From: Gemmatimonadales bacterium
Lineage (GTDB): Bacteria > Gemmatimonadota > Gemmatimonadetes > Gemmatimonadales > Gemmatimonadaceae
Length of the DNA stretch: 64,000 nucleotides
Assembly (NCBI GenBank): GCA_038208045.1
Contig: JBBQZD010000001.1
Span: 4,526 to 68,525, forward strand
Direction: 5' to 3'
The position numbers and the translations under genes were made by a program. The notes under the pieces are model-generated. The model saw only the letters and a list, made by a program, of their open reading frames with translations, was not told the origin of the DNA and did not search any database. Position 1 is the first letter of the stretch, and the number at the start of each line of letters is the position of its first letter. Positions 2,095 through 59,011 of the stretch are shown piece by piece.

Positions 2095-2282
2095 ACAAGC
2101 TTTGCAACTTCAATACGGTGGCACGGAGGAAAAGGGGAGGGTCATGGCGACTGCAAATACTCTGAAGGGGCTCGCGGTGAGATCTCACCACCAGGCCCCC
2201 CAAGAATCGCAATTGCATCCTCCGCGGCCCTCAGCCGTTCCTCCGCGCCTCCGTGTTGAAGCAGTTGAGGAAGGGCGCTCCA
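2095..2282 (+). repeat. nested-palindrome repeat (NPR) copy 1, degenerate, beta/beta' arms
   Basis: ttcaatacggtggcacggaggaaaaggggagggtcatggcgac ... ggggctcgcggtgagatctcaccaccaggcccccc ... cctccgcggccctcagccgttcctccgcgcctccgtgttgaag aligns with copy 2. Confidence 0.7.
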
Positions 2283-4205: not shown

Positions 4206-5485
4206 GCGGCCTCCGTGGCCGCACGGCGCGGCACGTACACCAGCGACGCGCGATTCTCCTCGCCCAGGAACTCGCGGGCAAACGCCGTCACCGCCTCGGC
4301 CGTCACCGCGCGGTAGCGTCCGAGCTGTCCGTTCACGAGAGCCGCGTCGCCAAAGATGGTCGCGAACTTCGACAGGGTGTCGGCGCGATCCCCCGCCGTC
4401 TGCAACGACGACACGTAGTCGGTCTCAATAAGGGCCAGGACACGCGCCACCTCGTCGTCCCGCACCCCCTCGGCGCGCAGTCGGTCGATCTCGGCGACCA
4501 CGGCGCGCTCGAGCGTGGCGGCATCGGTGCCCGGGCGGGCCGTCGCGTCCACGACGAACAGGTCGGCTCCCTTCGACAAGTCCCACGTGAACGCGCTCAC
4601 GTCGCTCGCCACCTCCTGCGCACGGATGAGCGAGCGGAACAGCCGGCTGCCGCGGCGCATGCCCAGCACCGCCGCACAGACGCTGCCCGCGAAGTACGCC
4701 TCGCTCCCGAACACCGGCACGCGAAACGCCAGGAAGAGTCGCGGCACCATCACGTCGTCCTCCACCTCGTCGCGCAACCAGCCCCCGAACGTCGCCGGAA
4801 GCTCCATCGGCGCCAGCGGCGGCCGGCCGCGGCCGCGCGCAATGCCGCCGAAGTGCCTCTCCACGAACCGGCGCGCCTCGGCCGCGTCAAAGTCGCCGGC
4901 AATCGAGAGCACGGCGTTGTCTGGCGTGTAGTACGTGCGGAAGAATTCCGCCACGTCGTCGAGGCTCGCGGCCGTCAGGTGATCCATCGAGCCGATGAGC
5001 GAATGATGGTACGGGTGCGCCGGCGGAAAGCACAGCGCGGGCAGTCGCTCCCACCAGGTGCCGTACGGCTGGTTGTCCACCGACCAGCGCCGTTCGTTTT
5101 TCACCACGTCGCGCTGTGTGTCGAGCTTCTCTTGCGTCATCGCCGGCAAAAGCGCCCCCATGCGGTCGGCCTCGAGCCAGAGCGCCAGTTCCAGGTGGTG
5201 CGACGGCACCGTCTCGAAGTAGTTCGTGCGCTCGAGCCACGTGGAACCGTTCAGCGTGCCCCCGGCTCGTTGGATCGACTCGAAGTGTTCGTTCGAACCG
5301 ACATGTTCCGACCCCTGAAAGAGCATGTGCTCGAACAGGTGCGCGAATCCCGTCCGGTCCTCGCGCTCGTTCGCCGATCCCACGTGGTACCACAGGTTCA
5401 CCGCCACGACTGGCGCAGAATGGTCCTCGGACAGCGTCACGAGGAGTCCGTTGGGCAGGCGGTACGAGTCGACGGGAATGTGCAT
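4202..5485 (-). CDS. M16 family zinc peptidase (pitrilysin-like), catalytic subunit
   Basis: 427 aa with the inverted zinc motif HLFEHMLFQGS near the N-terminus. Confidence 0.9.
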   Translation of the reverse strand: MHIPVDSYRLPNGLLVTLSEDHSAPVVAVNLWYHVGSANEREDRTGFAHLFEHMLFQGSEHVGSNEHFESIQRAGGTLNGSTWLERTNYFETVPSHHLELALWLEADRMGALLPAMTQEKLDTQRDVVKNERRWSVDNQPYGTWWERLPALCFPPAHPYHHSLIGSMDHLTAASLDDVAEFFRTYYTPDNAVLSIAGDFDAAEARRFVERHFGGIARGRGRPPLAPMELPATFGGWLRDEVEDDVMVPRLFLAFRVPVFGSEAYFAGSVCAAVLGMRRGSRLFRSLIRAQEVASDVSAFTWDLSKGADLFVVDATARPGTDAATLERAVVAEIDRLRAEGVRDDEVARVLALIETDYVSSLQTAGDRADTLSKFATIFGDAALVNGQLGRYRAVTAEAVTAFAREFLGEENRASLVYVPRRAATEAA

Positions 5486-8436: not shown

Positions 8437-8637
8437 CGGTGAGGGATGCTCGGCTTTTTTCAACACGGAGACACTGAGGAAGAACTGAGGGCCACGGAGA
8501 CTGCTACTGCCAAATTCTTTGGGGCTCGGCGGTGAGATCTCCCCGCCGGGCCCCCGTTGAATTGTAGTTGTCGTCTCCGTGGCCCTCAGCTGTTCCTTCG
8601 TGTCTCCGTGTTGAAGCAGTAAAAGGAATCGCCACGC
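8437..8637 (+). repeat. NPR copy 2, beta/beta' arms (near-perfect long hairpin)
   Basis: TTCAACACGGAGACACTGAGGAAGAACTGAGGGCCACGGAGAC ... center ... GTCTCCGTGGCCCTCAGCTGTTCCTTCGTGTCTCCGTGTTGAA. It begins 1 nt after the upp stop. Confidence 0.9.
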
Positions 8638-9768: not shown

Positions 9769-10659
9769 TCAGAAGATCAGCGGAGTGTGCGAGCCGGTTC
9801 CGGCCAGGCCGCGCGCGCGCGTTCGGTACGCCACGTCCGGCGGCGCGTCGCCGTTCGGCCAGTCGAGTGCTTTCCCCGCGTAGTCTGGGCGGGGTCGCGT
9901 CGCCAGAAACCCGGCGATGTCGAACGCCTGCTGTGGGGAGAGTATTCCAGGCGTGTCGCGCGGCATGTTGCGGCGAATGAACGCCGCGGCCACGCGGATG
10001 CGCGCCATGCCCGACCCGATATTGAACGCGCCGTCGCCCCACAGCGGCGTCCCCGACGTCAGGCTGTCGGCGGCAATCCGGCCTTCGCCGCTGGGGCCGT
10101 GGCATCGCGCGCAGTGCGCCGCGTACACCGCCAGGCCGCGCGCGGTGTCCGGAATCAGCGGCAGCAGCGAATCAATGCCACTCCCCCAGTTCCGGCGCCC
10201 CGACACGGTGCCGCGCGACAGCCACGAGATGTACGACACCAGGTCCCGCATGTCCGCGCCATCCGCCGGCAGCGGTGAGCCATCCATGCTCCGCTCGAAA
10301 CAGTCGTTGATGCGCTCCTCGATGTTCGCCACCTTCCCCGACCGCGAGCGGTACTGCGGGAACCGCCCGTAGGCACCGATCCACGGCATCGCGAAAGCGC
10401 GCGTGCCGTCGTCCAGATGGCACGACGCGCACCGCAGCCGGTTGCCGACGTGGTGCGGCAGTGAATCACGCGTGGCCCGCACCAGCGCCCGGCCGCGCCG
10501 GATGGACGCCGACAGCGGATCCTGCTTCAATGTCGATTCCGCCGGCGCGCGAAGGATCGTGTCCTGAGCGGCCGCCACACGCGAGGTGGCCACGTTCCCG
10601 CCGCCACCGCATGCCGACAGCAGCGCAATAACCAGGAGTCCTGTCGCCCTCGCTCTCAT
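9769..10659 (-). CDS. diheme c-type cytochrome (TsdA/thiosulfate dehydrogenase-like), lipoprotein signal
   Basis: Two CxxCH motifs (CASCH, CARCH). N-terminus MRARATGLLVIALLSACGG. Assignment to the TsdA-like family is by overall pattern only. Confidence 0.7.
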   Translation of the reverse strand: MRARATGLLVIALLSACGGGGNVATSRVAAAQDTILRAPAESTLKQDPLSASIRRGRALVRATRDSLPHHVGNRLRCASCHLDDGTRAFAMPWIGAYGRFPQYRSRSGKVANIEERINDCFERSMDGSPLPADGADMRDLVSYISWLSRGTVSGRRNWGSGIDSLLPLIPDTARGLAVYAAHCARCHGPSGEGRIAADSLTSGTPLWGDGAFNIGSGMARIRVAAAFIRRNMPRDTPGILSPQQAFDIAGFLATRPRPDYAGKALDWPNGDAPPDVAYRTRARGLAGTGSHTPLIF

Positions 10660-10701
10660 GCGGGGAAGATATGATCGCCGCGCCATCGCGTCACGCTGGC
10701 C

Positions 10702-12120
10702 TCACTTCCCCACACAGAACGTCCGGAACACGCGGTCCAGCACGTCCTCGACGTCCACGGCCCCGACCAATTCCTCCAGCGCCGTCACCGCCGCGCGCAG
10801 GTGCGTCGCCGCCACCGGAGCCGGGAGCGCCCGCTCCATCCACGCCGCGCGAAACGCCGCCAGTTCCTCGCGGGCACGCCGCAACGATGCCTCGTGCCGC
10901 GCCCGCGTCACCACCGGCGTCTCCTCATCCGGCGTCCCCACCCTCTCGAGCACTGCCCGCCGAATGGCCCCGCGCAACAACTGCAACCCCTCCCCACCAA
11001 CCGCACTAACGCAAACACCCCCCAAAGAAGCAGCCTCCGTGGCCCTCAGCCCTTCTCCGTGCCTCCGTGTTGAAGTTGCAGTAGCAGTTGCAGTAGCAGT
11101 TGCAGTAGCAGTTTCCCCCAAATCACACTTGGTCAGCACCGGCACCACCACCCCCGCAGTGAGCCCGCGCACCGCAACAACGGTGCGCTCCAGCACCTCG
11201 ACGCTGTCCGCGCAGGCAAGCACAACGTGCGCCTGCGCCACATACCGCTCGCTCACCTCGATGCCCAGCCGCTCCAGCGTGTCGCCGCTGTCGCGGAGCC
11301 CCGCCGTGTCGACCAGCCGTAGCGGGTACGGTGTGTCGTCTACCAGCACCTCCACCGCATCGCGTGTGGTCCCGGGGATCTCACTCACCAGCACGCGCGC
11401 CTCGCCCACCAGCGCGTTGAGCAGTGACGACTTGCCCGCATTCGGCGGTCCCGCCAGCACCACCAGCGCGCCATCCCGGCCGAGCGCCGCGGCCGGCAGC
11501 GTGGCGAGCAGCCGGTCTATCTGGGCCAGCGCCGCATCACACGCCGTCGCCACGCGCTCGCGCGACGGCGCCGCCTCGTCCTCCTCGGGGAAGTCGATCT
11601 CATAGGCAATCAGCGCATCCACCTGCAGCAGTGCCTCGCGCATCGCCAGCAGCCGCTGCGACAGCGCCCCGTCGAGTTGTCGCACCGCCGCGCGATGCGA
11701 CGCGCGCGACCGCGCATCAATCAGGTCGGCCACCGCCTCGGCGCGCACGAGGTCCAGCTTGCCGTGCAGCACCGCACGCTCGGTGAACTCCCCGGGCAGT
11801 GCCGGCCGCGCGCCCGCGGTCACGCACGCCGCCACCAGCAGCGTGCTCACCACCGAGCCGCCGTGCACCGCCAACTCCACCACGTCCTCGCCCGTGTACG
11901 AGTGCGGCGCGGCAAAGCGCGTCACGAGGCCGTGGTCAATCACCTGCGCCGGGTCGTCGGCGTCGTGCATCGTCACCAGCGTCGCCAGGCGCGCGCGCTC
12001 CGGAAACGGCGTCGTCACGCGTCGGGCGATGGCGAACGCCCGCGCGCCGCTCAGGCGCACGATTGCTATCGCCCCGCGTCCCGGGGCGGTGCTCACCGCG
12101 ACGATCGTGTCCGTGTTCAT
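10702..12120 (-). CDS. mnmE: tRNA modification GTPase MnmE (TrmE), carrying a repeat-derived insertion in the G domain
   Basis: 472 aa with GPPNAGKSSLLN (G1), DTAG (G3), TKCD (G4), SAVGGEG (G5) and C-terminal FCVGK. Confidence 0.95.
   Translation of the reverse strand: MNTDTIVAVSTAPGRGAIAIVRLSGARAFAIARRVTTPFPERARLATLVTMHDADDPAQVIDHGLVTRFAAPHSYTGEDVVELAVHGGSVVSTLLVAACVTAGARPALPGEFTERAVLHGKLDLVRAEAVADLIDARSRASHRAAVRQLDGALSQRLLAMREALLQVDALIAYEIDFPEEDEAAPSRERVATACDAALAQIDRLLATLPAAALGRDGALVVLAGPPNAGKSSLLNALVGEARVLVSEIPGTTRDAVEVLVDDTPYPLRLVDTAGLRDSGDTLERLGIEVSERYVAQAHVVLACADSVEVLERTVVAVRGLTAGVVVPVLTKCDLGETATATATATATATSTRRHGEGLRATEAASLGGVCVSAVGGEGLQLLRGAIRRAVLERVGTPDEETPVVTRARHEASLRRAREELAAFRAAWMERALPAPVAATHLRAAVTALEELVGAVDVEDVLDRVFRTFCVGK
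11018..11075 (+). repeat. NPR partial copy 3 (right half, beta'-type arm) embedded in frame in mnmE
   Basis: ccccccaaagaagcagcctccgtggccctcagcccttctccgtgcctccgtgttgaag matches the right halves of copies 1, 2, 5, 9 and 10. Confidence 0.8.
11075..11113. repeat. 12-bp tandem repeat (gttgcagtagca x3 + gtt) inside mnmE, encoding (TA)6-T
   Basis: Read directly; in frame; abuts the element half-copy. Confidence 0.9.
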
Positions 12121-12130
12121 CTCAGGTCTT

Positions 12131-12323
12131 GTGCGCCAGTCAGGGCGTGTTCAACACGGAGACACCGAGGAAGGCTGAGGGCCCCGGAGACCGCCTTGAA
12201 GGAAACAAGAAACAGGGGGCCGGCGGACGAATATGTCCCCCGAACCCCGATAATGAAGCAGCCTCCGTGGCCCTCGCCGTCAACTCCGTGGCTCCGTGTC
12301 GAAGAAAGGGCAGAATGGCGCAC
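12131..12323 (-). repeat. NPR copy 4, inverted orientation (beta left arm / alpha' right arm)
   Basis: ttcaacacggagacaccgaggaaggctgagggccccggag ... cctccgtggccctcgccgtcaactccgtggctccgtgtcgaa. It fills the yidC-stop to mnmE-start spacer. Confidence 0.85.
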
Positions 12324-17840: not shown

Positions 17841-18033
17841 GGCGCCATTCGGGGCTTTGTTCAACACGGAGCCACGGAGTTGACGGCAAGGGCCACGGAG
17901 ACTGCAACGGCAATTCAAGGGGGCCTGGGGGACAGCACGGTCCCCCGGGCCCCTGAGATTTTGTAATCGCAGCCTCCGTGGCCCTCAGCTTTTCCTCGGT
18001 GTCTCCGTGTTGAAAAAAGCCAAGAATGGCGCC
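17841..18033 (+). repeat. NPR copy 5 (alpha left arm / beta' right arm), full length with outer GGCGCCATTC...GAATGGCGCC palindrome
   Basis: Read directly. It fills the spacer between dnaN (stop 17834) and the convergent gene (stop 18045). Confidence 0.9.
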
Positions 18034-18044
18034 CCAGAACCCAG

Positions 18045-18899
18045 CTATGGCGTCCAGGAAACGGAAAGCCGGCTTTCCTGCTTCACGCGCTGGTTTCGGA
18101 TCTTGCTCTTGAATGACATCTCGAGGGTCGAGGTCCCGCTGGCCCGCAGCCAACGCGCCGCCGCGACATCAAGCGCGTAGCGAACCGTGCTCTCGCCCTG
18201 GGCCTCGATCGTCACGTGCTCCCCGAACTGTTCCCCGTCGCCGGTCATGCGGGATCGTGCGCGGCGCTCGATGGTCACGATGACGCGGTCGTTTTCGACA
18301 TCGGCGCGCGCCACGCGAAATTGCCGTGCGCTGGTGCCGTGCATCGGAATGCGATCACGGCAGGAGATCGTGTGAACGGTGTCCGTCCATTCAGTCCGCA
18401 GTCCGATCGTGTCCGGAAGGACCACCCATGCGTCGTACAGCCCCTGCATCACGCTGAGCGAGGGGTCGCTGCAGACATTCGACGCCGTCGGCAGCCGGAA
18501 GCCCGGCGTCGCGCCGCCGATGTCGGCACTGAACCGCGCGGGAAGCGCGAGCACGGCAATGGGCGTGGCGGCCCCCGCGCCGACCGCCACCTGGAAGGCG
18601 GTCAGGTGTCCGTCGAGGCGCCGAGGGTTGCCTGGCAGGCTCGCGTAGCTCGCGTCCAGCGTGGAGCGCAGGGTGTCCACACGCGCCGTGGTATCGCCCG
18701 TAATGGTCACCACGGCCTGTGTGCTGACCAGCACGTACTGTGAGGCGGTACTGGGCCGCAGGGCCCACGGGCCGGCCGTGGGGGGACCACTGGGCGCAGC
18801 GACGGGGCTGGCAGGGCGCGGCGCCGAGCGCACGGCCGGCGAGGTGACGCACGCGCCGGCCAGGAGCACCACGAAGAGCGATCGGGAGTGACGGAGCAT
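18045..18899 (-). CDS. hypothetical secreted protein or lipoprotein
   Basis: Start chosen at MLRHSRSLFVVLLAGACVTSP (signal/lipobox-like). No recognisable domain. The upstream part of the track ORF overlaps rnpB. Confidence 0.55.
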   Translation of the reverse strand: MLRHSRSLFVVLLAGACVTSPAVRSAPRPASPVAAPSGPPTAGPWALRPSTASQYVLVSTQAVVTITGDTTARVDTLRSTLDASYASLPGNPRRLDGHLTAFQVAVGAGAATPIAVLALPARFSADIGGATPGFRLPTASNVCSDPSLSVMQGLYDAWVVLPDTIGLRTEWTDTVHTISCRDRIPMHGTSARQFRVARADVENDRVIVTIERRARSRMTGDGEQFGEHVTIEAQGESTVRYALDVAAARWLRASGTSTLEMSFKSKIRNQRVKQESRLSVSWTP

Positions 18900-18965
18900 T
18901 GCCCTCAAGATGACGCCCGGCGCCCGGTGTCGAAAGCGGGGGCGGCGAGTTGTGCGCAACAAGAT

Positions 18966-18998
18966 CGCCCCGTTGCCGCACGAGGCGGCAACGGGGCG
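18966..18998 (-). terminator. perfect 14-bp GC-rich hairpin immediately 3' of rnpB
   Basis: CGCCCCGTTGCCGC-acgag-GCGGCAACGGGGCG, followed on the minus strand by ATCTTGTTG. Confidence 0.6.
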
Positions 18999-19002
18999 GG
19001 AC

Positions 19003-19367
19003 GACGGTGGGCCTGTAAGCCGGGTTCTGTCGGAACCGAAGTTCCGGACGGTCATTTCTCTCGGTGTACGGTCGCCCGCACACTCCAGCAACCAACCCGC
19101 GGCGTCTTGATCGCAGAGGACTGCTGCTCGCCGCCTATTTGGTCTTGCTCCCGCTGGGGTTTGCCGTGCCACACGTGTTGCCACGTGCGCGGTGGGCTCT
19201 TACCCCACCCTTTCACCCTTACCTCGGCTTTCGCCAAGGCGGTTTGCTTTCTGTTGCACTGTCCGTCACGCCTCACGGCGTGCCCAGGCGTTACCTGGCA
19301 GCGTGTCCATGGAGCCCGGACTTTCCTCGAAGCGGTTGCCCGCGTCGCGACCGTCCGGCCGCACCAA
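19003..19367 (-). ncRNA. rnpB: RNase P RNA, bacterial type A
   Basis: The minus strand contains CGAGGAAAGTCCGGGCTCCATGG (P4 5' strand), GCCAGGTAACGCCTGGG, AGTGCAACAGAAAGCAAACCGCC, GGTAAGGGTGAAAGGGTGGGGTAAGAGCCCACC and ACAGAACCCGGCTTACAGG (P4 3' strand). This is collinear with E. coli M1 RNA. The ends are estimated from P1 pairing (+/- 5 nt). Confidence 0.9.
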
Positions 19368-20408: not shown

Positions 20409-20420
20409 GCGCGCATGAGC

Positions 20421-20556
20421 AGGCAGCAGAGAAAGGCCGAGGGTCACGGAGCCGGCGACATACAGTCAAGCGAGGACATTATGAACCTCGAACCCGACAT
20501 TCCCAGCGTCGTCTCCGTGGCCCTCGGCCCTGCTCCGCGCCTTCGTGGTGAAGAAG
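20421..20556. repeat. NPR copy 6, degenerate (beta-type arms, replaced center) overlapping the 5' end of the GxxExxY gene
   Basis: The left arm gcagcagagaaaggccgagggtcacggagccggc matches ~24/34 to the copy 4 left arm. The right arm gtctccgtggccctcggccctgctccgcgccttcgtggtgaagaag aligns with the copy 1 right arm. Confidence 0.55.
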
Positions 20557-20969
20557 TTCACGCACCGAACGCGGCCAACACCGCCGTCGACCTCAAGCAC
20601 ACGCACGACCCGCTTACCGAACGCGTCATCGACGCCGCCATCGAGGTGCATCGGCAGCTTGGCCCGGGCCTGCTCGAGTCGGTGTACCAGCTCGCGCTCG
20701 AATACGAACTGCTCGCGCGGGGCATCTCGTTCGTCAGCGAGGTGCGGCTGCCGGTCCGCTACAAAGGGATGGAACTCGCCGGGCTGCTGCGGCTGGACCT
20801 CGTGGTCGAACGCGACCTCGTTGTGGAACTCAAGTCCGTGGACATCGTGCACGCCGTGAACCACGCGCAGGTGCTGACGTACCTCCGCCTTGGCGGCTTC
20901 CGCCGTGGGCTGCTGATCAACTTCAACGTCAGTCGGCTGGCCAACGGGGTGCGGCGGTTCGTGAGCTAG
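20481..20969 (+). CDS. GxxExxY protein (PD-(D/E)XK nuclease superfamily, TIGR04256-like)
   Basis: GLLESVYQLALEY (G-x-x-E-x-x-Y) and DLVVERDLVVELKS (D...ExK). ATG at 20481 with GAGGA 6 nt upstream. There is no alternative in-frame start downstream of the repeat arm. Confidence 0.8.
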   Translation: MNLEPDIPSVVSVALGPAPRLRGEEVHAPNAANTAVDLKHTHDPLTERVIDAAIEVHRQLGPGLLESVYQLALEYELLARGISFVSEVRLPVRYKGMELAGLLRLDLVVERDLVVELKSVDIVHAVNHAQVLTYLRLGGFRRGLLINFNVSRLANGVRRFVS

Positions 20970-20971
20970 GT

Positions 20972-21529
20972 TCAGGGCACCATTCGCGCGACGATCTCCC
21001 GGGCACCGGCCAGCGCTTCCACCGCAAGCCCCTCGGCCTCGAGCACTTCGCGCCCGCCCTCTTCGCGATCCACGACGGCGAGGACGCCGAGCACGTCGCC
21101 GCCGGCGGCGCGAATGGCGGCTACCGCTTTCAGCGCGGAGCCGCCGGTGGTGATGACGTCCTCAATCACCACGACCCGGTCGCCCGGCTGAAACGGACCC
21201 TCCACCAGCTTGCCTGTTCCGTGCGCTTTGACTTCCTTCCGCACCGTGAAGGCACGCACTGGGGTGTTGGCGAGCGCGCTGGCGTGCGCAATCGCATACG
21301 ATACGGGATCGGCGCCGAGCGTCAGCCCGCCAACCGAATCGGGCGACCATCCGCGCGCACGCATGCGCTCGAGGGCCAGCGGGCCGATCGTCGCGAGGCC
21401 GTCCGGGCTCATCGTCGTGAGGCGGGCATCGATGTACAGGTCGGACTGGCGTCCGGACGCCAGCGTGAAGCTGCCGCGCCGGGCGGAACGCGCGGCCAGC
21501 ATCTCGACCAACCGGGAATGGGGATCCAT
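20972..21529 (-). CDS. pyrE: orotate phosphoribosyltransferase
   Basis: 185 aa with PRPP-binding motif VVVIEDVITTGGSA. Confidence 0.95.
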   Translation of the reverse strand: MDPHSRLVEMLAARSARRGSFTLASGRQSDLYIDARLTTMSPDGLATIGPLALERMRARGWSPDSVGGLTLGADPVSYAIAHASALANTPVRAFTVRKEVKAHGTGKLVEGPFQPGDRVVVIEDVITTGGSALKAVAAIRAAGGDVLGVLAVVDREEGGREVLEAEGLAVEALAGAREIVARMVP

Positions 21530-22657: not shown

Positions 22658-22697
22658 CGTCTGGTGGTTGAGGCGGGGCGGCAGCCTGGGCTTGTTC

Positions 22698-22735
22698 CAA
22701 CACGGAGACACGGCGTCCTCGGTGTCTCCGTGTTG
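22698..22735. repeat. NPR mini-copy 7: outermost stem only (CAACACGGAGACAC-loop-GTGTCTCCGTGTTG)
   Basis: Read directly. It lies between the convergent histidine kinase and Ser/Thr kinase genes. The GGGCTTGTTCC left flank resembles the full-length left flanks. Confidence 0.7.
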
Positions 22736-22762
22736 CAGCCGTTCCACCCCGCACGCAAAACA

Positions 22763-25185: not shown

Positions 25186-25246
25186 CGTGGTGCCAGCGGC
25201 GCCCTGCGCGAGACACGGAGTCAATGCGCGCGCCGCGGACCATGCC

Positions 25247-28670: not shown

Positions 28671-28768
28671 GACACTTGGGACATGTCCGTCTTGTGTAGG
28701 AAGCACTACGCTGGTGATCGTGCGTGATGAGTCGCGCACCGTGCCGGCCTTTCTGCAGCCCACCGACC

Positions 28769-29152
28769 ATGACAGCTCAGCGCCGCGGATTTACCCTGAT
28801 CGAACTGCTGATCGTCGTCGTGATCATCGGCATTCTTGCCGCCATCGCGATTCCGAAATTCCAGAATACGAAGGGCAAGGCGAATGCGGCGTCGCTGAAG
28901 TCGGACCTGCGCAACCTGGCCACGGCGCAGGAAGCGTATTTTTACGACAACACGGTCTACGCCTCGTCGACCACGCAGATGGCGTACGGACAGTCGCCGG
29001 GCGTCGTGCTGACGATCATCACTGCCACCGGCTCCGGTTGGTCGGCGCGCGCCACGCATCCGGCCTCGTACCCGCTGACGTGCGCGCTCTTCCAGGGAAA
29101 CGTGGCGGCCGCCACGCCGGCCACGGTCGAAGGACTGATCGGCTGTCAATAG
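28769..29152 (+). CDS. type IV pilin-like protein (prepilin N-terminal cleavage/methylation domain)
   Basis: MTAQRRGFTLIELLIVVVIIGILAAIAIPKF; two Cys near the C-terminus. Confidence 0.85.
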   Translation: MTAQRRGFTLIELLIVVVIIGILAAIAIPKFQNTKGKANAASLKSDLRNLATAQEAYFYDNTVYASSTTQMAYGQSPGVVLTIITATGSGWSARATHPASYPLTCALFQGNVAAATPATVEGLIGCQ

Positions 29153-29217
29153 CCTTCCCCGAGCCGAGATGGCCGTCGATTCCGCCATGGAAGGAGTTCG
29201 ACCATCGGCGCGACGGC

Positions 29218-29448
29218 ATGCTGCACGCGATGACCGGCGGCCTCTGGTTGCACCGCCACACTTGGATGGGGCGCGCCATGGCGCACCTCGTGTCCACCGA
29301 TCATGATCGCCTCGTCGCCGCCGCGCGCGACATCCGCTTTCCCGTGGAACGCCTGCAATTCAAACCGCTGAAGGATCCGCGCACCGGCCTGCGTCGCGAT
29401 GCCTGGCATTTCGACCTCGGCGGTCCGTTCCTGCCGCCGCACGCATGA
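29218..29448 (+). CDS. DUF4031-like small protein
   Basis: ...GRAMAHLVSTDHDRLVAAARDIRF...RDAWHFDLGGP resembles the DUF4031 pattern (H..SD...L..FA...G....HYDL). Start uncertain. Confidence 0.4.
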   Translation: MLHAMTGGLWLHRHTWMGRAMAHLVSTDHDRLVAAARDIRFPVERLQFKPLKDPRTGLRRDAWHFDLGGPFLPPHA

Positions 29449-30290
29449 AGCGCGGCATCGGTGCAGGCGTCCTCGCAGCGCTCATGGCGTGCGGCGCTCC
29501 CGTGCCGGATCGAGCGGCCACACCCGGCGTGGCTGCACCTGCTGGCGCGTCGCGCGATGCCGTGCGCACCACCACCGAGGCGTGGCCAGACGCCATCGGC
29601 GGCGTCCTCGCCCTCGCGAATCCCGTCACCGGCGAAGCGCTGCTCTTCCGCCGTGACACGCTCGTGCCGCCGCGCACCGTGGTGGTGGTGGGCTACGACT
29701 CCACGGTGCAGCCGGCTGCCATCCGCGACGTGCGTCCCCTGCCGTGCGCCGCGCGTGCCCTGCTGCGGGTGACAGGCGTCGCCGCCGGGTGGACGCTCGC
29801 GCTCGACGCCGAGAGCGCGGGTCGTGCGCGGCCACTGGCCATCGACGTGCTCGAGGATCTCACCACCGTCGATTCACAACGTGTCGTGGTGCGCATCCAG
29901 CGCGCGCTGAACACGCTTCCCGATACGGGCAGCGGCATGGAATTCCGCGGTCTTCCCGTTGTCGTGCGTGACGCGTGGCTGGTGTACGGACCGTCGGACA
30001 CCCTGGTCGTCGCGCGCGCGGCGCGCATGCGCAACCTCGAGGCCACCGCGCACGAGGAACTGCGTTTCGTCGTCCTCGAGGGCAACCAGCCCCGATTCGT
30101 GGCGCGCGTCGCGGGCGACGAGGAAGTCATCGAGTCGTGGGATCTGCTTGCCGCGCTCGACGTGCATGGCCAGCCCTGGCTTGCGATCGCGCGCGAAGGC
30201 GTCCGGTCGCTGCAACTCGAGGTCATCACGCGCGACGGTGCGGTGTGGCGATCGGCGTGGCGCAGTGATGCGCTCCGGTGTTCACGATAG
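29445..30290 (+). CDS. hypothetical lipoprotein
   Basis: MKRGIGAGVLAALMACGAP lipobox. ATGA overlap with the upstream ORF. No recognisable domain. Confidence 0.55.
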   Translation: MKRGIGAGVLAALMACGAPVPDRAATPGVAAPAGASRDAVRTTTEAWPDAIGGVLALANPVTGEALLFRRDTLVPPRTVVVVGYDSTVQPAAIRDVRPLPCAARALLRVTGVAAGWTLALDAESAGRARPLAIDVLEDLTTVDSQRVVVRIQRALNTLPDTGSGMEFRGLPVVVRDAWLVYGPSDTLVVARAARMRNLEATAHEELRFVVLEGNQPRFVARVAGDEEVIESWDLLAALDVHGQPWLAIAREGVRSLQLEVITRDGAVWRSAWRSDALRCSR

Positions 30291-30296
30291 TGTAGT

Positions 30297-30489
30297 CCGC
30301 CATACCGGGCTTGTTTCAACACGGAGCCACGGAGTCAACGGCGAGGGCCACGGAGGCAGCGACTACAAATTCCTTGGGGGTTTGGTGGACAGTCCCGTCC
30401 GCCGAGCCCCTTGGAATTGCGGGTGCAGTCCAGGTGGCCCTCGCCGTTGACTCCGTGGCTCCGTGTTGAAAGAAGCTTCAAATGGCGCC
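30297..30489 (-). repeat. NPR copy 8, alpha/alpha' arms (near-perfect hairpin), center inverted relative to copies 9 and 10
   Basis: The reverse complement of its center (ggggctcggcggacgggactgtccaccaaaccccc) matches the centers of copies 9 and 10. Confidence 0.9.
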
Positions 30490-39579: not shown

Positions 39580-41634
39580 TTATCGCGCTTCGCGCCAGGC
39601 CGCCATCAGCGAGTCGCGTTGCAGCGGCAAATACTGGAGTGGCGCATCAACCCGCGTGCCCGCGCGCTTCAATAGGTATACCGGGCGGCCGGCGAATTGT
39701 GCCAGCAACAGGGAATCACGACCCTGCAGATCCCGCGCGTAGACATTGTCGCCGGTCGTGATCAGGCGCAGCGGTGCGTAGTGCAAAAAGCCCGCGCGGT
39801 CATCCTCGATGTGCTGCAGGCAGGCGGGGGTGTAGCGCGCACCGGGACGCATGCGCTCCGTGGGATCGGGTGTGAGTGTGCTCTTCTGTACCACGGCCGA
39901 GTCACGCGCGAGCACGACGGCGAGCCGCTGCTCGGCCGCGAATCCGCGCACGCCTTCGCGCTCGAGGTCAGTGATCTCACGCTCGAGGTCACACGCGTCG
40001 GTGCCGCGATAGACCGACTCGGTCTTGGCGCGTGACACCCCGAGCCCCCAGAGCCGCGCCACGAGCTGTGCCCCCCAGCTTTCGCGCACGAAGACGAGCG
40101 CGCCGCGCACGCCGGCTTGCTCTGCGCGGCGGGCGTAGTCTACGCGCATCGACGTGAGTCCCGCGCGGTACGATGCCAGGCGTACCGGGAGATTGAAGAC
40201 CAACGCCCCCACGATGCCGAACGCGAGCGCGGCCGTGACGCCGCGGCGCAGGTGTGCCGACGTCAGGCGGTCAGCCACGACACGCGGCACGCGCGCTGCC
40301 CACAGGACGAGCACGGGCAGCAGTGGAAGAACGAAACGTGGACCGAGATAGAATCCGTCGTGCCAGTAGAGCAGGTAGAAGACGATGAGGAGCGCGCCGG
40401 AGCCGAGGAGATACTTGTCCAGGGCGCCGAGGCGTGCGCGCGTGAAGAACAGGGCGCCAACCGGCAGCAGGAGCGACGGAAACGGCGTCTCGAACAGGTA
40501 GGTCTGCAGCCGCCACTGGTAGAGCGAGGCGAGCGCGAGGCCGCGCAGCGGCGTATGCGGTGCCCCCCACGGCGCGGCATGGAAGCCCAACCCGTGCGTG
40601 GCGCCCCACAGCACTTCGTAGCCAAACAGGAGCGGTTGTCCCGTGGTCTGCAGGTTCACGTACATCATGGCGGCAAACGGAAGCGCGACGCCAAGACCGG
40701 CGATGACATTTTGAGTCCAGCGCCGCCAGTCGCTTCCCGCGCGCGCAACGAGCCACAGGGCTGCGGGGAGCGCGAACGCAAAGGCGTCAAGCGGCCGGAT
40801 GGTGGCGGCCGCACCGAGTCCGACGCCAACGGCCAGGCTGAGCGCTACGGTTCTCGGGCGCAGGGACGTGGCGTGGACGCGTCCTGCCGCCGCGGCATCG
40901 TCCGCGACGAGTGCGACGAGCGCGACGACCGCCACGAGGATAAAGAGCAGCGCGGTGACGTGGTTCATGTACGAGCCGAACATGAAGACGCCGAAGGGAG
41001 CGAGCGCAAACAGCAGCGTGGCGCCGACCACCCAGCCGTCCGACGCATCGGGTTCCGCGGCGCGAGCGATGCGTGAGAAGAGCCAGACGATGAGCGCGCC
41101 GCAGACCGGCCCCACCAGCCACGGTGCGCCAGCCATCACGCCGAGCCAGAGCATGAACGGTCCGCCGGAGGGAAACTGCGAGTACACCCGGTCTCCGGTG
41201 TCCACGAGGTGCAGGTACGAAAAGAACTCGCGATGCAACGGCGTCGGAATCCACAGGTGGCCTTCAGCGTATCGCTGTGCCTGCCAGAGCTGCGCCAGTT
41301 CGTCGATGAGCAATGGCCGGCGTGAGAAGACCACCGTCGCCACGAGCGCATAGAGCATCAAGGAGCCAAATGCGACCAATGCCACGCGCGCCGCGAGCCC
41401 CCACGGATGGGCCTGCCGCGGCGCGATGGACGGCCAGTGGCCGCGACGGGACGCCATCCACGCCAGCAGCGCGACGCCGAACGTCAGTGCGGTGCCCGTG
41501 CCCCAGTCCCGCAGCTGGGTGGAGAGTCCGGACATCTCGAGTCCGACGTCGAGCAATGCGGCGAACGGGATGAAGCCGAGCACGACGAGCACGAAGCCCG
41601 CCGCGCGCGCCGGCCAGACACCCCGGTCGTTCAC
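39580..41634 (-). CDS. GT-C fold (family 39 / ArnT-like) membrane glycosyltransferase with C-terminal soluble domain
   Basis: About 12 predicted TM helices; acidic first-loop motif LLIDELAQLWQAQRYAEG. The family call is from the pattern only. Confidence 0.5.
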   Translation of the reverse strand: MNDRGVWPARAAGFVLVVLGFIPFAALLDVGLEMSGLSTQLRDWGTGTALTFGVALLAWMASRRGHWPSIAPRQAHPWGLAARVALVAFGSLMLYALVATVVFSRRPLLIDELAQLWQAQRYAEGHLWIPTPLHREFFSYLHLVDTGDRVYSQFPSGGPFMLWLGVMAGAPWLVGPVCGALIVWLFSRIARAAEPDASDGWVVGATLLFALAPFGVFMFGSYMNHVTALLFILVAVVALVALVADDAAAAGRVHATSLRPRTVALSLAVGVGLGAAATIRPLDAFAFALPAALWLVARAGSDWRRWTQNVIAGLGVALPFAAMMYVNLQTTGQPLLFGYEVLWGATHGLGFHAAPWGAPHTPLRGLALASLYQWRLQTYLFETPFPSLLLPVGALFFTRARLGALDKYLLGSGALLIVFYLLYWHDGFYLGPRFVLPLLPVLVLWAARVPRVVADRLTSAHLRRGVTAALAFGIVGALVFNLPVRLASYRAGLTSMRVDYARRAEQAGVRGALVFVRESWGAQLVARLWGLGVSRAKTESVYRGTDACDLEREITDLEREGVRGFAAEQRLAVVLARDSAVVQKSTLTPDPTERMRPGARYTPACLQHIEDDRAGFLHYAPLRLITTGDNVYARDLQGRDSLLLAQFAGRPVYLLKRAGTRVDAPLQYLPLQRDSLMAAWREAR

Positions 41635-43693: not shown

Positions 43694-44011
43694 ATGCCTC
43701 TTCCGCTTTCCCACGGCGCCCCCACCCTGCTCATTCGCAAGCGTGCGTTTGAGGAGCATGCGCTGGCGCGCGCCGACTTCGACGTGGCCCTGCACCTGAC
43801 GGCCGATGAATTCCGGACCGAGGGCGACCTGATTGCCATCGGGCCCATCTACGACTCCGAGGGATTCACCGCGACGATCGCTGACCTGGAATCGAGAGGC
43901 CTGGTGTACTACGACGATTTCTTCGACTTCAGTGGCAACTGGCCGGAGTGGCTGTCGGTGCACGCGATGGCCAAGCGTGAAGGCTTCAGGGACTCGGCGA
44001 TCTCGCCGTGA
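43694..44011 (+). CDS. hypothetical protein (105 aa)
   Basis: Coding-like composition; its stop overlaps the rsmD GTG start (GTGA). No recognisable domain. Confidence 0.5.
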   Translation: MPLPLSHGAPTLLIRKRAFEEHALARADFDVALHLTADEFRTEGDLIAIGPIYDSEGFTATIADLESRGLVYYDDFFDFSGNWPEWLSVHAMAKREGFRDSAISP

Positions 44012-44520
44012 GGATCGTCGGCGGCAAGATCGCGGGGCGCGACCTCCTTTCGCCCAAGGACTTCCGGGTGCGGCCGACGGCGGAGCACGTGCGTGCGGCG
44101 GTGATGGACATGCTCGCGGCGGATCTCAAGGACGCCCGGGTGCTTGATTTGTTCGCTGGGACCGGAGCACTGGGCCTCGAAGCCATGTCACGCGGTGCCA
44201 AGTACTGCGACTTCGTGGAAGACCGGCCGTCGAGCCTGCATTCGTTGAAGGCGAACGTCGTGCGCTGCCAGGCGCAGAAGAAATCTCGCGTCTTCAAGAA
44301 GGACGCGCTTCCCTTCGCCCGCGACCTCAAGCCCGAGACGTACGACCTGGCGTTCTGCGACCCGCCGTACGAGTCGCGCATGCTGGATCGCGTCATTGAC
44401 CACTGGAAGGAAAATCGCTTCTCCAGAATTCTCGTCTGCCAGCACGCCACCGGGCACGAACTGCCGCGCGGCAAGGTGACGCGCAAATTCGACGATACCA
44501 CCATCACGATCTACCGCTGA
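44008..44520 (+). CDS. rsmD: 16S rRNA (guanine966-N2)-methyltransferase RsmD
   Basis: MRIVGGKIAGRDLLSPKDFRVRPT..., LDLFAGTGALGLEAMSRGA, CDPPY. Confidence 0.85.
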   Translation: MRIVGGKIAGRDLLSPKDFRVRPTAEHVRAAVMDMLAADLKDARVLDLFAGTGALGLEAMSRGAKYCDFVEDRPSSLHSLKANVVRCQAQKKSRVFKKDALPFARDLKPETYDLAFCDPPYESRMLDRVIDHWKENRFSRILVCQHATGHELPRGKVTRKFDDTTITIYR

Positions 44521-44534
44521 GCGCCGGAGGGACG

Positions 44535-44873
44535 ATGGCCTACGACGAGAAACTCGCGGAACGCATGCGCCGGGCGCTGGCCCCGCGGCGCAACGTCGTG
44601 GAGCGGAAGATGTTCGGCGGCGTCTGCTTCATGGTGGATGATCACATGGCGTGCGGCATCGTCATGGACATGCTGATGGTGCGCCTGTCGGCCGAGGCCG
44701 CAGCCGCGAGCCTGAAAGAGAAGCACGTGCGGCCGATGGACTTCACGGGCAAGCCGCTGAAGGGCTTCCTGTACATCGCGGCGGATGGCCTCAAGACGGC
44801 CGCGCAACTCAGGAAATGGGTGGAACGCGCCGTGGCGCACGCCGAGTCGCTGCCTGTAAAGAAGCGGCGCTAG
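44535..44873 (+). CDS. TfoX/Sxy N-terminal domain protein
   Basis: MAYDEKLAERMRRAL...ERKMFGGVCFMVDDHMACGI... Confidence 0.75.
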   Translation: MAYDEKLAERMRRALAPRRNVVERKMFGGVCFMVDDHMACGIVMDMLMVRLSAEAAAASLKEKHVRPMDFTGKPLKGFLYIAADGLKTAAQLRKWVERAVAHAESLPVKKRR

Positions 44874-44880
44874 CTTGGGT

Positions 44881-45082
44881 GGGCAATTCTGGGCTTCTTT
44901 CAACACGGAGCCACGGAGTTGAGGGCGAGGACCACGGAGACGGCAACGGCAATTCCAAGGGGGCTCGGCAAACGGGACTGTCCGCCGGGCCCCCCAAGTA
45001 TTTGTAGTTGCGGTCTCCGTGGCCCTCAGCCTTTCCTCTGTGGCTCCGTGTTCCGTGTTGAAAAAAGCTCAGAATGGCGCAC
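44881..45082 (+). repeat. NPR copy 9 (alpha / beta' arms; extra ccgtgtt duplication at the right end)
   Basis: Read directly. It fills the convergent spacer between stop 44873 and stop 45087. Confidence 0.9.
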
Positions 45083-49860: not shown

Positions 49861-50814
49861 CTACTTGCCGATCGTGCCCCTGAGCGCGCCGCGGATGGCG
49901 TTCGGCGCCGACATGATGTTCATGAAGCTGTTCTTGCCCATCATGGACAACTCGGGGAAGCTGACGGCGATGCGGAACCGCGCGTACTGCGCATGAACCG
50001 TATTGCCCGACACCAGCATCTCGTACGGCAGGTGCGCCGAGGACTTGATGTCCTTGAAGTCGATCTCGCTCATGATGTAGGCATCGGCCTCGGACGCGCC
50101 GGTGGGAATGGCCCCGAAGAACTCGTTCGGCGGACCGTCCTTCTTGCCGACCTTGCCGGGCTTGCCGGCCATCGCCACACCGAAGACGGATTCCTGTTTG
50201 CCGGGAATATCGATGCGATAGACCTTGGTCACGCCTTCCCTGCCGGCCGCGAGCCCCGCCTCGACGGCCGCAATGGCCGCCTCGTGGTTCGGGAACGTGC
50301 CCAACTCGGTTTTGTCGTCGAACGACTCCATGCCGATCATGTAGTGGTACTTGCGCGCCTTTTTCTCCGTCATGGCCTTGTCCATGCCGAACTCTTCCAC
50401 GTTGCCGAGCGTGGCGGCGAGCTTGGCGTAGACGTCCTTCAGGTCGCCCTTCATCCGGTAGACATTGGCCATGTATGCCGGGTTGGTGTAGCTGACCTGG
50501 ATCTCCGATTTCACCTTGGTGATCGCCACGCGCTGGGCCGCACCGTACCCGCCGTGCTCCGAGGCGGCCGCGTTATCCTTGAGTTCGTCACTGGTGACGA
50601 TCAGGATCATCGCGCCGGGATAGGGCGAGTACGTGCCCACGATTGCAAATCCGCCGGCGGCAAGCGCGGCCTTTGTGCTCGCCACCTTCGCCTCCATGGC
50701 GCCGGGCCCGCGCGAAGCGAGGACGAACGGTTTCATCAAGTCATCATCGGCGGCCTTCGCCGCCGTGGCGCCCACCACCAGCAGCGCCGTCACGAACATC
50801 GATTTCACGGTCAT
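49861..50814 (-). CDS. hypothetical secreted protein (possibly DUF302-like N-terminal fold)
   Basis: Signal MTVKSMFVTALLVVGATAAKA; coding-like composition; the domain call is weak. Confidence 0.55.
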   Translation of the reverse strand: MTVKSMFVTALLVVGATAAKAADDDLMKPFVLASRGPGAMEAKVASTKAALAAGGFAIVGTYSPYPGAMILIVTSDELKDNAAASEHGGYGAAQRVAITKVKSEIQVSYTNPAYMANVYRMKGDLKDVYAKLAATLGNVEEFGMDKAMTEKKARKYHYMIGMESFDDKTELGTFPNHEAAIAAVEAGLAAGREGVTKVYRIDIPGKQESVFGVAMAGKPGKVGKKDGPPNEFFGAIPTGASEADAYIMSEIDFKDIKSSAHLPYEMLVSGNTVHAQYARFRIAVSFPELSMMGKNSFMNIMSAPNAIRGALRGTIGK

Positions 50815-53663: not shown

Positions 53664-53863
53664 AACGCCATTCGGGGCTTTTTCAACACGGAGCCACGGA
53701 GTCAACGGCGAGGGCCACGGAGGCTGCAACGGCAATTCAAAGGGGGCTCGGCGAACGGGACTGTCCACCGGGCCCCCAAGTATTTGTAGTTGCCGTCTCC
53801 GTGGCCCTCAGCCTTTCCTCGGTGTCTCCGTGTTCCGTGTTGAAAAAGTCCGGAATGGCGCAC
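53664..53863 (+). repeat. NPR copy 10 (alpha / beta' arms), full length
   Basis: Read directly. It begins 4 nt after the helicase stop, and its last base overlaps the tag stop codon. Confidence 0.9.
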
Positions 53864-58945: not shown

Positions 58946-59011
58946 TTCGCGAGCGGCCGCTCGGAACTACTCGTCATCGCGCGACGTACGTGCCTCAGAG
59001 CCCCCGAAGTG

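Follow-up and report, generated by a model that had tools for sequence, protein, structure and literature searches.

The origin region of this Gemmatimonadales chromosome raises the question of what kind of element a long palindromic repeat represents that recurs between its housekeeping genes, and whether a dedicated enzyme stands behind it. The stretch analysed, hereafter the window, comprises 64,000 nucleotides at 67% GC and carries rnpA, yidC, mnmE, dnaA, dnaN, RNase P RNA, polA, parAB and gidA. One of the proteins encoded there has Gemmatimonadaceae MAG proteins as its nearest relatives, which makes a source within Gemmatimonadota probable. An initial annotation made from the letters of this DNA had described seven full and three partial copies of a nested palindrome of about 190-200 bp. 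A profile built from the seven full copies re-found every one of them at the coordinates claimed (nhmmer E 5e-46 to 2e-61) and recovered the three partial copies too, with no other match in the 64-kb window, and the same repeat families were returned there by an independent repeat finder.

The repeat is built in nested layers, and every layer that had been proposed is visible in the alignment of the seven copies. The outer layer (GGCGCCATTC...GAATGGCGCC) is clear in five of the seven and degraded in the copies at 2095 and 8437. Each arm is an array of the octamer N-CACGGAG, the two arrays being inverted relative to each other and closed by TTCAAC...GTTGAA, and the heptamer CACGGAG occurs 52 times in the window against 16 +/- 4 expected, with the majority of the occurrences inside the ten copies. 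The arm pattern of the class proposed below, inverted CACRGAG and CTCYGTG arrays spaced by 8-9 nt with TTCA(A/C)C...G(T/G)TGAA closure, is present in all seven full copies. Variants of the arm heptamer include CACGGAG, CACAGAG, CACGAAG and CGCAGATAA. A segment of 18 nt within the arm, previously called variable, does exist, but it comes in two alleles, alpha (CCACGGAGTYRACGGCGAGGGCC) and beta (ACACCGAGGAAARGCTGAGGGCC), as the alignment revealed. Since these alleles combine in four ways (alpha/beta', beta/alpha', alpha/alpha' and beta/beta'), the family is a mosaic; its copies lie in mixed orientation in the window. Each copy can form the single long imperfect hairpin that had been predicted. 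The copy at 17841-18033 folds with -138 kcal/mol on either strand (z = -14 versus shuffles), and for the seven full copies, folded as RNA together with a little flanking sequence, the values lie between -94 and -155 kcal/mol.

The focal copy (17841..18033, alpha/beta') may serve as an example of this design. Its left arm core, TTCAAC-ACGGAGCC-ACGGAG (17860..17879, + strand), is an octamer array and corresponds to the motif found across phyla. The inner left arm GGGCCACGGAG (17890..17900, +) pairs with CTCCGTGGCCC at 17974-17984, and between the two lie a central GC-rich hairpin, GGGGGCCTGGGGGAC-AGCACG-GTCCCCCGGGCCCC (17919..17953, +), flagged as terminator-like, and a T-rich tail, TGAGATTTTGTAAT (17954..17967, +), with its mirror tail TTGAATTGCCGTTG on the minus strand. 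The right arm core CTCCGTGTTGAA (18003..18014, +) was read from the sequence and the alignment.

A stop codon lies 2-12 nt from the start of each of the seven full copies, which nearly fill their spacers; the gene context is convergent in four cases, tandem in three and divergent in none. The focal copy is situated between the dnaN stop (17834, +) and the stop of a convergent ORF (18045, -), and the copy at 30297..30489 (alpha/alpha') between the convergent stops 30290 and 30502. The copy at 44881..45082 is enclosed by the stops of a TfoX-like gene (44873) and a dienelactone hydrolase gene (45087), and that at 53664..53863, which is 89% identical to it, by the stops of a DEAD-box helicase gene (53659) and a Tag glycosylase gene (53863). 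In tandem context, the copy at 2095..2282 (nhmmer E 5e-50; fold -94/-99 kcal/mol) lies between a Nudix stop (2287, -) and an ECF sigma start (1920, -), neighbours that were named from Pfam. The copy at 8437..8637 (beta/beta'; nhmmer E 5e-58) begins 2 nt past an upp-like stop (8435, +) and lies upstream of a DUF2268 gene (+), also in tandem. The copy at 12131..12323 (beta/alpha'), inverted relative to the one at 17841, fills the spacer from the yidC stop (12334) to the mnmE start (12120).

The three copies recorded as partial are all present, and each turned out to be something more specific. What had been delimited as 22698-22735 is really a complete mini-hairpin, CAACACGGAGACAC-(10 nt)-GTGTCTCCGTGTTG at 22676..22738, consisting of the outer layers only. 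The copy at 11018..11075 (- strand) is a left half-element, TTCAACACGGAGGCACGGAG..GAGGGCCACGGAGGCTGC, which lies in frame within mnmE, contributes the residues STRRHGEGLRATEAA and follows an (ACTGCW)n Thr-Ala repeat. The copy at 20421..20556, which has lost its left outer arm and kept its right arm intact, lies directly 5' of the domain of a GxxExxY nuclease and overlaps its ORF, a gene that the earlier reading had missed. A three-way comparison additionally identified a terminal-palindrome remnant, GGGCACCATTCG (20975..20986), which now provides C-terminal codons of a phosphoribosyltransferase gene. A possible solo arm fragment, CTCCGTGTCTC (25210..25224, on the - strand), occupies a place at which the related contig L170 carries a full element (4402-4581).

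The statement that the element is not a canonical intrinsic terminator holds for the outer 85-bp stem, which has no T-tract, but probably not for the central GC hairpin with its T-rich tails. In the focal copy, the hairpin at 17919-17953 with the tail GAGATTTTGT was flagged by a simple terminator scan, and per-copy folding showed that the pairing of the central stem is kept while its sequence changes (CTTGG/CCAAG, TGTGG/CCACA, CGTGG/CCACG). The T-tracts are interrupted and not canonical, with 5-10 T in 14 nt overall. In convergent contexts both tails are T-rich (5-8 T in 14 nt, about 2 expected), and in tandem contexts the sense tail has 6-10 T and the antisense tail 2-4 T per 14 nt in six of seven cases. 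Thus the sense (-) tail of the copy at 12131, TGTTTCTTGTTTCC, has 9 T versus 2 on the antisense side, and that of the copy at 8437 has 7 T versus 3. In all three tandem contexts of the window, the fold of the sense strand is also the more stable one, and across phyla an A-tract 5-8 nt upstream of TTCAAC was found in 30% versus 4%. From this we infer, with support from both tails and folds, that the central hairpin is terminator-like and that the direction of its tail follows local transcription. We grade this no higher because the samples are small (seven tail and three strand-stability cases) and the T-tracts are interrupted.

A comparison of orthologous loci for presence or absence of the repeat and for target-site duplications had been suggested in the initial annotation. 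Syntenic relatives, obtained by a metagenome scan and protein look-ups and sharing 76-84% nucleotide identity, carry these sites empty, reduced to a mini-hairpin, full or tandemly multiplied. The focal 17841 site is also occupied in L245 (7093-7284), and the yidC/mnmE spacer is occupied in L245 (one copy), L148, L186, L129 and L196, the relatives having one to three tandem copies. L227 also has a copy at the 44881 site and lacks the two genes to the left of it. The 30297 site, filled in the window, is empty in L245, where an 11-nt spacer remains and both stop codons are part of a small hairpin at the empty site; this filled/empty pair (window 30297-30489 versus L245) shows no target-site duplication. 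The spacer between the HisK and Pkinase genes (the 22676 site) holds the mini-hairpin in the window, is empty in L245 and contains a full nested element in L170. The 20421 site, partial in the window, has a full copy in L245 (9805-9992). On the 3' side of the nuclease gene, a 2-nt spacer and a terminal remnant of 11-12 nt in the window correspond to a full element in L245 and L170. Two of these presence/absence cases are better read as deletion in the window lineage than as insertion. Protein and DNA alignments showed that the half-element in mnmE adds 15-19 residues, is decayed in L148 and L245 and is absent in L129. Copies within this genome are 80-89% identical, whereas positional orthologues share 66-73% and the flanking genes 82-84%. 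This closer resemblance among the copies of the genome indicates recent copying or gene conversion between them.

The gene next to the 20421 copy provides a candidate for the enzyme behind this behaviour. The ORF 20415-20969 was identified as PDDEXK_3 (PF13366, E 5e-38) and as a GxxExxY protein in NCBIfam (TIGR04256, E 8e-39); the gene is placed at 20481..20969 (+), with the conserved domain starting from ~20613. GxxExxY proteins have a length of ~125 aa and belong to the PD-(D/E)XK nuclease family. The database product begins within the remnant 20421-20556, so that its first ~33 residues derive from translation of the arm. The catalytic residues D73/E83/K85 are invariant in 27 homologues, and the AlphaFold model (AF2; pLDDT 92.6) has Cas4, lambda exonuclease and LHK-Exo as its nearest solved folds. 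A sequence search of the PDB returned no solved relative, and no PADLOC defence-system model matched. The initial annotation had stated that the window contains no transposase or RAYT-like gene. This is correct for those domains, since a Pfam search of the 40 window ORFs detected no transposase, RAYT/Y1_Tnp or integrase domain, but it overlooked the PD-(D/E)XK nuclease gene.

The nuclease gene of the window is syntenic in three related genomes, which argues against recent movement, and its customary start codon has been lost. Arms accompany the PF13366/TIGR04256 gene within the same genome: the partial copy at its 5' end in the window, a full element on each side in L245, and one full and one partial element in L170. 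The GxxExxY family is very large: no fewer than 7,985 clusters matched at E<=1e-5 when the search was restricted to candidates. A published survey exists in which PF13366 is classified as 'unknown' with multiple transfers between divisions (PMC3424549), and our search of the open-access and bioRxiv literature found no paper that links the family to repeats.

Outside the window, the arm motif TTCAACACGGAGNCACNGAG was found at no fewer than 119 loci from at least 10 phyla in a scan of one genome per species, where chance would give ~17 matches in the whole collection (2 x 596 Gb / 4^18). Among the matches listed are Acidobacteriota, Planctomycetota, Chloroflexota, Bacteroidota, Verrucomicrobiota, Myxococcota, Gemmatimonadota and others, as well as Desulfuromonadales and Alpha-, Beta- and Gammaproteobacteria. 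The cross-phylum matches have the same hairpin design, with 2-4 CACRGAG heptamers spaced 8-9 nt, and at least two reverse heptamers lie within 320 nt in 60% of the cross-phylum matches listed versus 4.8% of control windows. Judged from sequence, the arm motif is common to many phyla and the element is not private to one lineage. In viral contigs both the motif (4 loci) and the GxxExxY nuclease (2 loci) are rare. The family matched no known Rfam model at the gathering score in the window and 31 related loci, where only RNase P RNA and tRNAs were recognised, and at E<=10 there were only spurious miRNA models. The impression that it had not been described before also stood, as no description of it came to light in the open-access and bioRxiv literature, nor did the motif strings turn up there in any paper of relevance.

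The proteins encoded next to these loci were then compared with each other. All-against-all BLAST of the neighbours of the cross-phylum loci (at least 119) gave clusters that are generic domains or translated element arms, and, among the matches listed, no protein other than GxxExxY recurs beside them. In ~250 loci no transposase-sized ORF lies between inverted arrays, GxxExxY being the sole ORF family enclosed. Nine of the motif-selected loci have a GxxExxY homologue, and the gene is mostly located between a CACRGAG array and a CTCYGTG array, which is to say in the hairpin loop. Since loci fetched with the motif had been selected by the motif itself, the formal test was based on loci chosen by protein similarity alone, eight by exact protein sequence and two from a protein scan of viral contigs. 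Arrays within 200 nt of the gene were present at 9/10 of these loci and in 7.9% of control windows from the same loci (P~1e-9). Two added loci, L257 and L258, fit as well, so that 11 of 12 protein-selected loci have arms.

We were able to distinguish several arrangements among them. The gene is situated inside the hairpin loop in L248 (Gemmataceae, doubly nested), L249 (Maioricimonas), L251, L254, L255, L256 and L257 (Chloroflexia), and is bordered by complete gene-less hairpins in L245 (both sides), L250 and L253. A Gemmatimonadaceae paralogue, L258, has arms of the GAGGGCCACNGAG type. The exception is L252, which has a different repeat, and two of the 12 protein-selected loci have a one-sided hairpin only. 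Arm-bracketed GxxExxY genes occur in Gemmatimonadota, Planctomycetota, Chloroflexota, an alphaproteobacterium and unclassified metagenome contigs, and the genes occupy unrelated operon gaps, such as the carA/carB gap and a microcompartment operon. A survey of the N-termini of 120 GxxExxY homologues for array-derived peptides was uninformative, because gene callers mostly choose the true start.

These results make it probable that the ~190-nt unit belongs, as a non-autonomous member without a gene, to a palindromic family whose autonomous form is the nuclease together with its arms. Our best reading is a REPIN/RAYT-like system with a different nuclease fold, in which the nuclease would, by analogy, mobilise the repeats. 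The nuclease may recognise the octamer arrays, probably in the form of a DNA hairpin or cruciform, and may promote copying of the arm-bounded DNA via break repair or gene conversion, which would be a parallel to RAYT transposases and their REP/REPIN elements. Indications of such an action on the arms are indirect, namely the intact catalytic D/E/K residues, the turnover at orthologous sites and the homogenisation within the genome. In the gene-less copies, the position of the gene is occupied by the GC-rich hairpin with T-rich tails. As all gene-less copies share this central module, which is absent in gene-bearing forms, they descend from a gene-less ancestor and not from seven gene deletions. 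A derivative that carries its own terminator would be harmless or useful only just past stop codons, and this might be the reason why the copies sit there. Decay would proceed by deletion from the centre outwards, since long palindromes are unstable, and would leave mini-hairpins and terminal remnants. We propose more tentatively, as a possibility deserving serious attention, that GxxExxY proteins (PF13366) are in general the nucleases of an unrecognised, phylum-spanning class of mobile hairpins. In such a class the gene would reside in the loop, act on the arms and spawn gene-less, terminator-carrying families that can make up ~2% of local sequence, a second, independent instance of the REPIN/RAYT-style lifestyle with another nuclease fold. 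The dependence might also run in the reverse direction, with the nuclease gene homing into pre-existing hairpins.

A related explanation treats the hairpins as host elements, namely bidirectional terminators or RNA-stabilising or RNase III-processed stems, and GxxExxY as a selfish gene in its own right that enters their loops by homing. The hairpins would then be its targets and not its passengers, and would spread or persist for reasons of the host or through another mechanism. We consider this explanation unlikely, albeit worth keeping in view, as much of the evidence would suit it. All seven copies abut stop codons (four convergent, three tandem, none divergent), the T-rich tails of the central hairpin track transcription and A-tracts are enriched upstream of TTCAAC across phyla. 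The gene lies exactly in the loop, as would be expected for homing insertion, and the empty site of L245 is itself a small hairpin over both stops. However, an arm sequence of 20 nt common to at least 10 phyla would be unexpected for host terminators, the sites are dispensable, being empty in close relatives, and a half-element is found within a coding gene (mnmE). Tandem multiplication and homogenisation within a genome are, moreover, the behaviour of a replicating sequence. The idea of a structured non-coding RNA gene, either an sRNA or a cis-regulatory RNA with the long hairpin as its functional product, is very improbable. It would be consistent with the very stable folds, with stem pairing that is kept despite different sequences and with the systematic G:T wobbles on one strand in relatives from Anaerolineae. 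On the other hand, the element has no promoter of its own, a near-perfect palindrome gives the same fold from both strands, the alpha/beta' combinations disrupt pairing in one segment, orthologous sites can dispense with the element, and an Rfam match is absent.

The family might alternatively be an ordinary MITE that descends from an insertion sequence of the DDE type, or a REP/BIME that depends on a RAYT (HUH Y1) encoded elsewhere in the genome. It is indeed interspersed, palindromic, intergenic and high in copy number with mosaic arms, REP superfamilies that extend across phyla have been described (PMC3733652), and our view of the genome covered 64 kb. Nevertheless we regard this as quite improbable, since the 40 window ORFs contain no transposase or Y1 domain, GxxExxY is the only recurrent protein at the cross-phylum loci (at least 119) among the matches listed, and the pair of sites examined has no target-site duplication. 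In addition, the hairpin foot has no unpaired GTAG or CGTC tag, the unit has five times the size of a REP, and no F...R array pair surrounds a transposase-sized gene in ~250 loci. Integron attC recombination sites, which are imperfect palindromes of 50-150 nt, came into question because the TTCAAC/GTTGAA closing boxes loosely fit RYYYAAC/GTTRRRY (YYYAAC/GTTRRR). This identification is hardly credible: no integrase is encoded among the 40 ORFs, the copies are solitary between mixed-orientation housekeeping genes of the origin region and not arranged in cassette arrays, the R position is not conserved, and octamer arrays are not known from attC.

The system that we favour, a nuclease dedicated to high-copy palindromes, is already known in principle from REP/REPIN and RAYT (TnpA-REP), which together are called REPtrons. 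There, as here, high-copy intergenic palindromes lie just downstream of genes and form dimers and clusters, and a repeat-flanked nuclease gene is inherited at one fixed place in conserved synteny, as seen here for the window, L245 and L170. REPs are imperfect palindromes of 20-40 nt, one end of which has an unpaired GTAG or CGTC tag, and their superfamilies, defined by a conserved short motif, span phyla (PMC3733652), a feature shared by the elements described here. The repeats of the present family, in contrast, are hairpins of 50-200 nt composed of 8-nt tandem arrays; in the window the unit measures 190-200 nt and has a paired TTCAAC/GTTGAA foot, with GTAG found only in the inner spacer of some copies. 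RAYT is a HUH Y1 transposase, whereas the repeat-flanked gene here encodes a protein of the PD-(D/E)XK fold (PF13366), and Y1_Tnp is absent from the 40 window ORFs. Unlike in REP/RAYT, the gene is located within the hairpin loop in most phyla and has apparently been inserted in many unrelated operon gaps. Compared with the searchable literature (open-access and bioRxiv), the protein fold, the octamer arms, the gene in the loop and the built-in terminator are new.

Other palindromic families resemble the present one in single aspects. BIMEs of enterobacteria, too, follow the 3' ends of genes, where they have been proposed to act in termination and in stabilising mRNA. Both families combine arm modules of different types into a mosaic (Y and Z REPs in BIMEs, alpha and beta in our copies) and form tandem clusters, but there is no sequence relation, and the modules are nested here in one long hairpin where BIMEs have alternating REPs. 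Correia/NEMIS of Neisseria, ERIC, RUP and Nezha are abundant, intergenic, co-transcribed inverted-repeat units of 100-200 nt that form RNase III-sensitive hairpins and can terminate transcription; in size, abundance, intergenic location and inverted-repeat structure, these and other MITEs are similar to the units described here. MITEs have terminal inverted repeats and target-site duplications and are derived from DDE insertion sequences. Our family differs from them in that no duplication is seen at the examined pair and no transposase partner was found, nor did any of ~250 loci have a transposase-sized ORF between array pairs that could represent a parent insertion sequence. Rickettsia palindromic elements are likewise able to lie in frame within coding genes, but only one case, a half copy, is known here, and they belong to another lineage and have no sequence relation. 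The 23S rRNA IVS with an S23p ORF, for instance in Coxiella burnetii, have a long stem whose loop contains a small ORF, and the stem allows RNase III to excise them from the host transcript (PMC4990558). They correspond to our elements in being selfish and in having an ORF in the hairpin loop, and differ in that they reside in rRNA helices and encode a four-helix-bundle protein, while the elements here lie between protein-coding genes and encode a nuclease.

A better knowledge of this association would be of general importance if the proposal is true, since a very large protein family so far listed as 'unknown' would gain a function and a substrate that can be tested. It would also account for a common origin of spurious ORFs and of unusual N-terminal extensions in genomes from soil and sediment. 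With one protein of 125 aa and one hairpin of ~50 nt, the system is simple enough for direct biochemistry, and its gene-less members indicate portable, sequence-defined terminator cassettes for high-GC bacteria, whose terminators are poorly understood. Beside REPIN/RAYT, the single well-studied case, a second system of a nuclease plus palindromes would then be available, so that general rules of intragenomic replicators could be compared.

The element, a nested-palindrome repeat of about 190 nt whose arms are inverted arrays of the octamer N-CACGGAG, reaches into coding sequence at several places in the window. The start ATG of the gene for the GxxExxY nuclease in the relative L245 has been lost from the window gene (20481-20969, plus strand), where CCATGACC of L245 has become CCAACACC. 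The recorded window product, a putative protein, begins at 20481, within an element remnant, and its N-terminal extension (..SVVSVALGPAPRLRGEE..), which concerns the stretch 20481-20612, is the repeat arm in translation. At the other end of this gene only 2 nt separate it from the convergent phosphoribosyltransferase gene, whose final codons and stop are supplied by a terminal palindrome remnant of the element (window 20967-20990); the element behind this 3' remnant is of full length in two relatives. A further case is mnmE (10702-12120, minus strand), which carries an in-frame insertion, chiefly at 11018-11120, in a variable loop past the G domain. The insertion is composed of an (ACTGCW)n repeat, corresponding to (Thr-Ala)n, followed by the left half of the element, which encodes STRRHGEGLRATEAA; the insertion is found in a decayed form in the relatives L148 and L245 and is absent from L129. 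The empty counterpart of the site of the 30297-30489 copy, at 19781-19811 of L245, is a perfect 12-bp hairpin, CCCGGTGAGCAC GCG GTGCTCACCGGG, within which both convergent stop codons fall.

Some genes also differ in their presence among the relatives. The SoxA/TsdA-like di-haem cytochrome c gene (9769-10686, minus strand), situated between the DUF2268 gene and mnmE, is missing in L148, with an element in its place, and in L245, with a spacer of 84 nt. Both the RsmD-like methyltransferase gene (44008-44520) and the TfoX-like gene (44535-44873) are missing from L227 (window 43996-44895), and the left end of the 44881-45082 copy lies at the boundary of this indel between the window and L227.

Among the landmarks of the window are dnaA (15.0-16.5 kb) and parAB (36.8-38.6 kb), and the GC skew is negative over 1-18 kb, near zero over 18-40 kb and positive past the 40-kb mark. 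A match to the class A bacterial RNase P RNA (19000-19367, minus strand, 287 bits) shares sequence with the mechanical ORF 18045-19184, over the 5' part of that ORF, and therefore the true gene there must be shorter. For this ORF, as for 28714-29448, 29445-30290, 39580-41634, 49861-50814 and 59009-61234, none of the Pfam families matched.

In related genomes represented by SESE01/SESH01 metagenome contigs (L129, L143, L186, L196 and L199) the density of the element exceeds that of the window, reaching up to 5 copies per 4 kb, and head-to-tail tandem pairs occur with about 16 nt between their members. In copies on three Anaerolineae MAG contigs (L014, L096 and L112) the arm opposite the CACGGAG array is made of CTTCGTG units, an arrangement that in several copies gives, per octamer, one G:T wobble on one strand versus an A:C mismatch on the other, and this asymmetry hints that these arms may be selected on one strand, as RNA or single-stranded DNA. 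Arrays of the CGCAGATAA type surround a GxxExxY gene of 45% identity in the protein-selected locus L252 (1-1977), and a CACGGAG hairpin at about 2731 of L026 (reverse strand) has CACAGATGRA arrays nested within it. These array types suggest that the arm 'alphabets' of tandem-array hairpins may form a wider set than the CACGGAG type.
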